From Candidatus Azambacteria bacterium RIFCSPHIGHO2_02_FULL_52_12 (GTDB lineage Bacteria > Patescibacteriota > Minisyncoccia > GWC2-36-17 > WO2-46-25), in NCBI GenBank assembly GCA_001775835.1, contig MEYP01000006.1:16486-52720 (forward strand): 36,235 nt of DNA, read 5' to 3'. Shown here piece by piece: positions 30,154-30,831 of this stretch. The position numbers were made by a program, and so were the translations under genes. Under the pieces are notes generated by a model, which saw only the letters and a list, made by a program, of their open reading frames with translations, was not told the DNA's origin and searched no databases. The first letter of the stretch is position 1; every line of letters begins with the position of its first letter.

Positions 30154-30192
30154 AATCGTACACAATTATTACTATCGGCTATTTTGTGTACG
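30154..30192 (+). repeat. 39-bp direct repeat, copy 1 (contains a 9-bp inverted repeat)
   Basis: The sequence is aatCGTACACAAttattactatcggctattTTGTGTACG, identical to 30793-30831. The right arm carries the -35-like TTGTGT. Confidence 0.95.
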
Positions 30193-30212
30193 ATTCTGTT
30201 TTAGGGTAAAAT
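30184..30212 (+). promoter_or_regulatory. Promoter overlapping the repeat hairpin (leaderless geometry)
   Basis: TTGTGT (30184-30189), a 17-bp spacer, then TAAAAT (30207-30212). The ATG at 30219 is 6 nt after the -10 box. Confidence 0.5.
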
Positions 30213-30218
30213 ATAGGT

Positions 30219-30776
30219 ATGGGAAGAAGACTTGGACCAACGGCGCAGAAAATACTTTTATTGCTTGAGGCGGGAATTATTCTCGGGCTCACACAAAGGC
30301 CTGATCACTATTTTCGCGTGCTTAAAAAAGCGCATAAGGCATGGAAAGAAATCGATGCGGAGAGCATGCATAAAACAATCAAGCGCCTTTATCATTCAAA
30401 ACTCATTGATTATCACGAGAATAGAGACAAAACGGTTTCATTGGTTATCGCCGCCGTCGGAGAGCAAAAGATTCTTCGTTATCGTTTAGAAAACATGAAG
30501 ATTCAAAAACCGCCGCACTGGGATGGATTATGGAGGGTCGTTATCTTTGATATTCCGGAGCGATTCAAAAAGGGAAGAGTGGCGCTCGCCTGCGCCTTGA
30601 AGAATCTCGGATTTCATGCATTCCAGAAAAGCGTTTTTGTGCATCCTTATCCATGTAAAGATGAGATTGACTTTGTCGTTGAAATGTTCGAATTGCGACC
30701 GTACGTTCGGTTCTTGGTTGCGCAAGAGGTAGACGTTGCACCGGACTTAAAACGGAAGTTCCATCTCAAGAGTTGA
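30219..30776 (+). CDS. PaaX-like protein with a central Cas2-like domain (putative regulator)
   Basis: The 185-aa ORF has an N-terminal wHTH-like segment (GPTAQKILLLLEAG...). WDGLWRVVIFDIPERFKKGRVALACALKNLGFHAFQKSVFVHP is typical of the PaaX/Cas2-like fold. Confidence 0.65.
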   Translation: MGRRLGPTAQKILLLLEAGIILGLTQRPDHYFRVLKKAHKAWKEIDAESMHKTIKRLYHSKLIDYHENRDKTVSLVIAAVGEQKILRYRLENMKIQKPPHWDGLWRVVIFDIPERFKKGRVALACALKNLGFHAFQKSVFVHPYPCKDEIDFVVEMFELRPYVRFLVAQEVDVAPDLKRKFHLKS

Positions 30777-30792
30777 GCTCATAGGTTTATTA

Positions 30793-30831
30793 AATCGTAC
30801 ACAATTATTACTATCGGCTATTTTGTGTACG
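30793..30831 (+). repeat. 39-bp direct repeat, copy 2
   Basis: It is a perfect copy of 30154-30192, starting 17 nt after the stop of the PaaX-like gene. Confidence 0.95.

Follow-up and report, generated by a model that had tools for sequence, protein, structure and literature searches.

Why should a single small gene be enclosed by two perfect copies of the same palindrome? This question is raised by a locus of Candidatus Azambacteria bacterium RIFCSPHIGHO2_02_FULL_52_12, whose genome comprises 0.92 Mb on 28 contigs. The window, that is, the whole stretch of DNA that was analysed, covers 36,235 nucleotides (nt) of contig MEYP01000006.1 (positions 16,486 to 52,720), and coordinates given without a contig label refer to it. 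On its plus strand, at 30219..30776, lies a gene for a protein of 185 amino acids (aa), here called mini-PaaX, and on either side of this gene stands the 39-nt sequence AATCGTACACAATTATTACTATCGGCTATTTTGTGTACG, at 30154-30192 and again at 30793-30831. The gene and its two flanking palindromes are referred to below as a module. The explanation that best accounts for this arrangement, and that is considered probable, is that the two repeats are the cognate sites of the encoded protein, which would bind them as a dimer on duplex DNA, with the upstream site giving autorepression.

A repeat pair that brackets one gene

The initial annotation had described an identical 39-mer on both sides of a PaaX/Cas2-like gene, with nothing else enclosed, a hairpin in each repeat and an AT-rich setting, and each of these descriptions is borne out by the analysis. 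The two copies agree exactly, the match stretches to 43 of 45 nt with 2 mismatches, and no match comparable to the 39-nt repeat appeared in 100 dinucleotide-preserving shuffles. The single real open reading frame (ORF) between the copies is that of mini-PaaX. Each copy forms a 42-bp quasi-palindrome made of AATCGTACACAA, an 18-nt spacer centred on CTATCG, and then TTGTGTACG(A/G)TT. The upstream copy, the predicted cognate palindrome called site 1 (30154..30195, no strand assigned), reads AATCGTACACAA - ttatta CTATCG gctatt - TTGTGTACGATT, with arms of 12 bp (AATCGTACACAA / TTGTGTACGATT) and the dyad between 30174 and 30175. Its downstream counterpart, predicted site 2 (30793..30834, likewise without strand), equals site 1 over 39 nt, begins 17 nt past the stop codon and has its dyad between 30813 and 30814; the right arm ends in GTT, not ATT, so that the arms are 9 bp when exact, or 12 bp when one T.G position is included. 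In both sites CTATCG falls exactly on the dyad of the spacer (30172..30177 in site 1), where it represents the family-wide core CKATMG, and the asymmetric spacer is identical between the two copies. As single strands the copies fold with -14 and -17.4 kcal/mol (z about -4.4), giving a stable stem on both strands. The G+C content of the region 28600-31000 is 40-47%, compared with 52-60% on either side.

This bracket layout is a family trait, common to most of the relatives examined. In a search of 41 genomes (the genome itself and 40 relatives), homologs were found in 27, at 0 to 13 per genome, with as many as 13 copies in a genome of 0.5 Mb; the family as a whole comprises 1,275 clusters (50% identity) at an E-value of 1e-30 or better. 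Close homologs appear in public records under the labels Candidatus Azambacteria, Parcubacteria or Patescibacteria, and some records name the protein "CRISPR-associated endonuclease Cas2". A gene was counted as bracketed when a shared element with a score of at least 18 lay within 220 nt on both of its sides, and two gene sets were used, the first consisting of homologs from relatives (58 testable) and the second of genes from other species genomes (73 testable). Bracketing on both sides was found for 48 of the 58 genes and 61 of the 73 (83-84%), against 29 of 503 control genes of 140-260 aa in two genomes (~6%), a count that includes about ten family genes.

The family sites span about 40 bp, and their dominant centres are CGATCG, CTATAG, CTATCG and CGATAG, with C at position 3 from the dyad in 175 of 188 half-sites of the first set and 234 of 244 of the second. 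The centre is common to the family and the arms are gene-specific: the four half-sites within a module are 72% identical over their outer 16 nt, compared with 34-35% between modules. The median distance from stop codon to dyad is 37 nt and that from dyad to dyad 658 nt, and the downstream site is retained despite a convergent next gene in 14 of 54 cases. Certain ortholog groups have kept their neighbour gene across several genera while the protein changed in concert with all four half-sites, and two such groups are syntenic across three genera each. Full-text literature searches returned no paper in which PaaX or Cas2-like proteins are tied to flanking palindromes in Patescibacteria, and the module is apparently a large variant of the PaaX kind that is undescribed in print.

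The encoded protein and the bases it may read

Profile and fold comparisons place mini-PaaX near PaaX. Its central Cas2-like domain matches Pfam PaaX_M (PF20803) over residues 99-174 with an E-value of 2.1e-19 and 69.9 bits against a cut-off of 24 bits, and the Pfam Cas2 profile matches at 0.0015. An AlphaFold2 model built on a 48-sequence alignment (predicted local distance difference test score, 86.7) comprises a winged helix at about residues 1-78, with helices at 7-24, 28-43 and 47-59 followed by a two-strand wing, then a linker helix at 79-91 and a Cas2-like ferredoxin-fold domain at about 100-181. The winged helix has no Pfam match, but it is present in the model and in the Foldseek alignment to Escherichia coli PaaX (8A39). 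This structure ranked first, with 198 aligned columns over both domains, ahead of Rv0674 (3KFW) and then of Cas2 structures. Sequence searches of the PDB, with the single sequence or with a profile, gave only weak Cas2, MarR and PadR matches, and the fold search was needed to reach PaaX. The score against the PaaX equivalog TIGR02277 is far below its cut-off (22.5 against 264.55 bits), and that against the Cas2 model TIGR01573 falls just under (20.2 against 24.5 bits). PaaX_C gave no Pfam match, and the protein ends at residue 185, right behind the Cas2-like domain. As modelled, mini-PaaX is a minimal PaaX-type regulator, composed of a winged helix and a Cas2-like domain and devoid of the ligand-binding PaaX_C.

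Across the 48 aligned sequences the Cas2-like half is conserved and the winged helix is variable. The invariant residues are W101, D102, W105, F110, D111, R120, S138 and P143, with D111 present in 48 of 48. Two other public assemblies (L157 and L158) carry the same locus with one difference, at 30534 in codon 106, where AGG becomes GGG and the near-invariant R106 of the W-x-x-W-R motif is turned into Gly.

The closest known system is PaaX itself, the phenylacetyl-CoA-responsive repressor of the paa operons of E. coli W (domains PaaX, PaaX_M and PaaX_C; PF07848, PF20803 and PF08223), which likewise carries a winged helix followed by a Cas2-like domain. Its operator, TGATTC-N27-GAATCA, has a total length of 39 bp, and at its own promoter PaaX acts as a repressor that blocks RNA polymerase (PMC9493321); like the window palindrome, the operator consists of two far-apart inverted words in a long-spaced layout. 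The PaaX chain in 8A39 has 305 residues against the 185 of mini-PaaX, which is without PaaX_C, the known ligand domain. Unlike PaaX, mini-PaaX has sites on both sides of its gene, and its genomes hold many paralogs, each with its own site. With Cas2 (TIGR01573, PF09827) and VapD the protein shares a ferredoxin-type fold, an Asp at the end of strand 1 (D111) and a Q-x-S-V-F motif, along with weak profile matches. Unlike Cas2, it is fused to a winged helix and accompanied by palindromes, not by repeat-spacer arrays; neither Cas1 (PF01867) nor regularly spaced repeats or a CRISPR array was found in the genome.

The link between protein and palindrome comes from covariation. Each alignment column was compared, by mutual information, with the consensus base at every distance from the dyad, for 43 modules and then, with the second set added, for 104. 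In the 104 modules residue 117 covaries with base 4 from the dyad at z 20 and residue 121 with the same base at z 13, while residue 114 covaries with bases 1-2. The bases of the centre pair with residues 114, 117, 121 and 124, which form one face of helix a1 of the Cas2-like domain, beside the invariant R120; in the predicted recognition helix (49-57), residues 49, 51, 52 and 57 pair with arm bases 13-18. Glu at 121 is accompanied by G at base 4 in 24 of 28 half-sites of the first set and 61 of 64 of the second, Asn by A (30/36 and 24/28), and Lys or Arg by C (17/20 and 16/16). R117 occurs with G at base 2 (50/56 and 68/68), and the invariant R120 with C at base 3 (166/172 and 234/244). Every one of these first-set pairs was found again in the second set. 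In major-groove readout Glu prefers C, Asn prefers A, and Arg and Lys prefer G, on the complementary strand where needed. Judged by these preferences, the pairs are chemically sensible and are those expected if duplex DNA, not a hairpin loop, were read by a symmetric dimer. V121 and A124 of the window protein are both without hydrogen-bonding side chains, and its sites have a mixed centre, CTA|TCG. Among first-set modules, Ala or Gly at 124 goes with a mixture of G and T at base 2 (15 G and 17 T half-sites), which fits this asymmetric centre.

Binding of duplex DNA by mini-PaaX is well supported as a prediction from these patterns. In the proposed mechanism, a dimer would occupy each palindrome of ~42 bp, its two winged helices reading the outer arms (CGTACACAA), which lie about 10-19 bp from the dyad, and helix a1 of each Cas2-like domain (114-124, beside R120) reading the central CKATMG hexamer. 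Site 1 would thereby cover the -35 region of a leaderless promoter, and the protein would repress its own gene via occlusion. The promoter-like stretch in question (30184..30212, plus strand) is made of TTGTGT at 30184-30189, inside the right arm of site 1, a 17-nt spacer and TAAAAT at 30207-30212; as read from the sequence, the ATG at 30219 follows 6 nt past TAAAAT, so that the mRNA would be leaderless. In several homologs a similar -10 hexamer precedes the ATG by 6-8 nt, at a distance of 32-36 nt from the dyad. The placement of the right arm of site 1 on the -35 position, combined with the PaaX-like long-spaced layout, makes autorepression the likeliest role, and occlusion at site 1 is regarded as likely. 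Site 2 would be a second site of the same module, probably there for cooperative binding or looping, or to isolate the unit by means of a protein roadblock. Its assignment to the module, and not to the next gene, follows from the retention of downstream sites beside convergent neighbours and from the bare orthologs of the downstream gene described below. The initial annotation had proposed two operators through which the encoded winged helix-turn-helix protein would control itself and the gene downstream; the cognate sites and the position of the upstream copy on the gene's own promoter are retained from this proposal, and the control of the downstream gene is not.

Several observations weigh against this explanation. 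The promoter is only a consensus reading: the geometry given in the initial annotation, from TTGTGT to the ATG, is right base for base, but TTGTGT agrees with TTGACA at 3 of 6 positions, and a consensus promoter scan did not report the site. The distance from dyad to start codon is not fixed across the family, ranging from 19 to 145 nt in the first set, with medians of 46-49. Repression alone leaves the bracketing on both sides of the gene unexplained. The Cas2-like domain of PaaX has been described as a dimerisation motif, not as a DNA reader (PMC9493321), whereas that of mini-PaaX appears to read the centre of the site. The covariation counts are uncorrected for shared ancestry, although the clustering on one helix face and the replication in a second set argue against a pure lineage effect. 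In that second set A124 occurs mostly with G (42 of 52), and the link between A124 and the mixed centre of the window is probably a weak one. Finally, palindromes that stand alone, away from a family gene (solos), lie in 19 tandem, 7 convergent and 3 divergent gaps, against a background of 63/18/19% (the genome itself and one complete relative genome). They show no preference for promoter-bearing gaps, unlike the sites of a classical regulon, and one solo copy of the window palindrome, with one arm degenerate (C7:27602-27637), sits between convergent genes.

Solo palindromes and the question of a mobile unit

Among the alternatives, the one that survives best, while still judged unlikely, is that the locus is a selfish module of REP/RAYT-like or cassette type. 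The protein would cut or recombine at the palindrome dyad, for example via Asp111, or host recombination would act between the direct repeats; units of palindrome plus gene would be excised, inserted and spread, leaving solo palindromes behind. The genome does hold such solos. It contains four copies of the window palindrome, the two that flank the gene and two solos, of which the second (C26:4310-4345) is flanked by two genes of the same strand, one lipoprotein-like and one for signal peptidase I, gene names having been read from ORF translations. Each of the three family genes in the genome is flanked by its own, different palindrome pair and has one or two solos elsewhere, one and two in the case of the two other paralogs. 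The search for further copies of the 39-mer suggested in the initial annotation thus yielded two more in the genome, not many unlinked ones, and this number is far below that of REP families. Exact-pattern scans of metagenome and genome contigs found no copy of the window palindrome outside its own genome. Of 60 relatives, one carries a site with similar arms around a 14-nt spacer, a likeness that is probably due to chance.

The likeness to REP/RAYT systems, or REPINs (PMC3116915, PMC3337134, PMC5581495), is considerable. In both, a single-copy gene is flanked by palindromes that it is thought to recognise, the same palindromes are dispersed in intergenic DNA, inheritance is vertical over the long term, and the specificities of gene and repeat are matched. 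Unlike the RAYT proteins, however, mini-PaaX has a winged-helix and Cas2-like fold in place of an HUH/Y1 transposase, each module has 1-4 solos as against tens to hundreds, several modules occur per genome, and there is no evidence of cleavage. By sequence reading, what appears to be a classical REP/RAYT-like pair is present in the same genome at C12:22250-23009, where a gene with the HUH motif of IS200/RAYT-type Y1 transposases (…LMPNHFHLLV…) is flanked by the hairpin ATGTTTGGAAGTTAAACTTCCAAACATG. Integron cassettes with attC resemble the module in having a single ORF between imperfect palindromes in direct orientation. They differ from it in that no integrase was seen among the ORFs read around the module (no systematic search) and there are no R''/R' core sites; moreover, the module sites are gene-specific, covary with the encoded protein and are in some pairs inverted.

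Orientation is among the points in favour of mobility. Where the flanking pairs are clearly asymmetric over the inner 18 nt, 19 are direct and 4 inverted, with 85 undecided, and the asymmetric spacer of the window is the same in both copies. Copy number ranges from 0 to 13 among the 40 relatives, one ortholog group (L018, L040 and L089) occurs in differing contexts, and D111, the invariant residue, corresponds to the catalytic Asp of Cas2. In genus g5 the content of one slot flanked by two conserved genes differs between species: one has the module there, three have a YvcK-like gene, and a fifth has 195 nt. None of the four module-free species has a palindrome in the slot. The pattern is one of replacement, not of clean insertion or deletion. 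The "empty" version of the slot (L130, G010:C79:1095-1289) contains a direct duplication of ~40 nt from the end of the left-hand gene (GGCGATGAGCGGTATTGGAACATCGCCAAAGAG).

Non-family genes bracketed by palindromes of the same kind, inside longer direct repeats, also favour mobility. Two copies of the third paralog's palindrome (C27:6724-6759 and 8247-8282; L136) are embedded in direct repeats of ~150 nt and bracket two unrelated membrane-anchored genes of 148 and 184 aa (C27:7019-8016). In a complete relative genome (G036:C1:558243-558888), the gene of a 181-aa membrane protein (558317-558863) lies between 74-nt direct repeats, each of which holds a CGATAG-centred palindrome of the family class; this gene, absent from the family search matches, may be read as a palindrome-bounded "cargo" gene.

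The genome also contains orphan palindromes built in the same way, without a cognate gene in the assembly. One of them, C18:16433-16471 (L132:2934-2972; CATGTCGTTATTC..GAATAACGACATG), has its cognate gene only in relatives: over 39 nt it shows 100% identity to the sites on either side of a same-genus homolog (L018), and it is 98% identical to those of L040, from another genus, while the surrounding coding DNA is only 76-91% identical. Conservation of the orphan beyond that of nearby coding DNA points to purifying selection on the site, which speaks for the proposed role as a cognate binding site. A second centre-like sequence, GCGCTATCGCG, follows about 100 nt past it. Two further orphans, C1:12483 and C21:38058, have the same arms (TTGTACGTC .. 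CTATAG .. GACGTACAA) and lie 20-40 nt upstream of promoter-like stretches of a prepilin-peptidase-type and a Clp ATPase-type gene, respectively; their cognate family gene is also absent from the assembly.

Against a mobile module stand the relationships among the modules themselves. Paralogs within a genome are 33-55% identical and have differing palindromes, giving no sign of recent copying, and synteny is kept across genera by several ortholog groups, an indication of vertical descent. The context is also unchanged in two near-identical metagenome contigs. The protein is without a recombinase or HUH domain, and no recombinase was found among the translated ORFs listed for 27000-34000, which were read without a systematic search. 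Relatives lacking the cassette and retaining one repeat, the comparison named in the initial annotation, were looked for, and no clean site with a single palindrome was found. In a comparison aimed at a conserved regulon, the solo slot on C26, which lies upstream of the signal peptidase I-type gene and then a tRNA-synthetase gene (again read from ORF translations), contains a solo of another module lineage in one relative (G002) and none in eight others, a pattern that points neither way. A same-genus module adjoins an aminoacyl-tRNA synthetase gene; the corresponding upstream gap has no palindrome here, and the other neighbour differs. The cassette boundaries suggested by the initial annotation accordingly keep the direct orientation, the solos and the variable copy number in their favour and lose ground on synteny, on the recombinase and on the missing one-repeat site.

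A related proposal is given only a small chance. The Cas2 fold would serve as a base-reading DNA module, with helix a1 on the dyad and the conserved Asp pair above it, and the gene with its two sites would be a self-perpetuating element whose protein nicks or recombines its own palindromes or rides recombination between them. With such an element, the bracket and the direct orientation would be explained, as would the solo and orphan sites and the cargo genes enclosed by palindromes. If true, this would be a partnership of the REP/RAYT kind, with an unrelated protein at its base and a distribution across the Candidate Phyla Radiation.

Hairpins, neighbouring genes and the meaning of the family

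It is very improbable that the hairpins act as RNA or single-stranded DNA, whether as a 3' terminator or stabiliser or as a 5' processing site, with the Cas2-like domain as a ribonuclease. Cas2 and VapD relatives are ribonucleases and are found among the fold matches, the stem is stable on both strands, and the sole arm mismatch of site 2 in the window is T.G. In a first count, G.U-compatible mismatches in downstream sites outnumbered A.C mismatches by 26 to 9 (p 0.006), but the excess fell to 15:6 under a stricter rule and was not replicated in the second set (16:11, p 0.44). No T-tract bias exists past the sites on the sense strand, and no Rfam match was obtained; the predicted leaderless promoter would leave site 1 outside the gene's own transcript. 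The palindromic centre hexamer on the dyad and the duplex, major-groove-type pairs fit double-stranded DNA, and unbiased arm mismatches without a T-tract are what duplex recognition leads one to expect. The suggestion of hairpin insulators in the initial annotation thus found no support, given the lack of T-tract bias and the unreplicated G.U hint.

That site 2 is the operator of the downstream gene, with the module as its dedicated local regulator, is scarcely credible, for although the site lies 27 nt upstream of that gene's promoter-like stretch, both genes share a strand and the C1 and C21 orphans hold similar positions, seven orthologs of the gene in relatives have no module, no palindrome upstream and other upstream neighbours, and family downstream sites hug the stop codon and persist beside convergent genes.

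The downstream gene is glucose/sorbosone-dehydrogenase-like and lies on the same strand as that of mini-PaaX. Its separate promoter-like stretch (30861..30888, plus strand), consisting of TTGTAG, 16 nt and TG-n-TAAACT, begins about 27 nt beyond site 2 without overlap and is outside the module; it is a reading of the sequence that the consensus scan did not list. Upstream of the module lies a NUDIX-like gene that is split into two overlapping frames, 29625-29975 (116 aa) and 29912-30109 (65 aa). An independent metagenome contig, L157, has the gene called in the same two parts (genes 1809-2159 and 2156-2293), and the gene may be frameshifted or decaying. Near the C26 solo, at C26:4226-4262 (L133:1927-1963), stands a motif of ~35 nt made of GAAAC/GTGAAAC words (CATGAAACGTGAAGCGTGAAACTTGAAACG), which belongs to a separate dispersed repeat family, with numerous matches of 86-96% identity in two relatives.

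The genomes of Patescibacteria are very small and encode few regulators that can be recognised, yet the mini-PaaX family extends to the 1,275 clusters noted above. If mini-PaaX proteins bind their flanking palindromes as proposed, the family would supply ready-made orthogonal pairs of protein and operator with a partly readable recognition code, and it would reveal a DNA-sequence-reading role for the Cas2 fold that has not been described before. The routine mis-annotation of these proteins as "Cas2" or "PaaX" would be corrected at the same time. The double bracket and the solo sites are also relevant to the persistence of repeats and their partner genes in reduced genomes.

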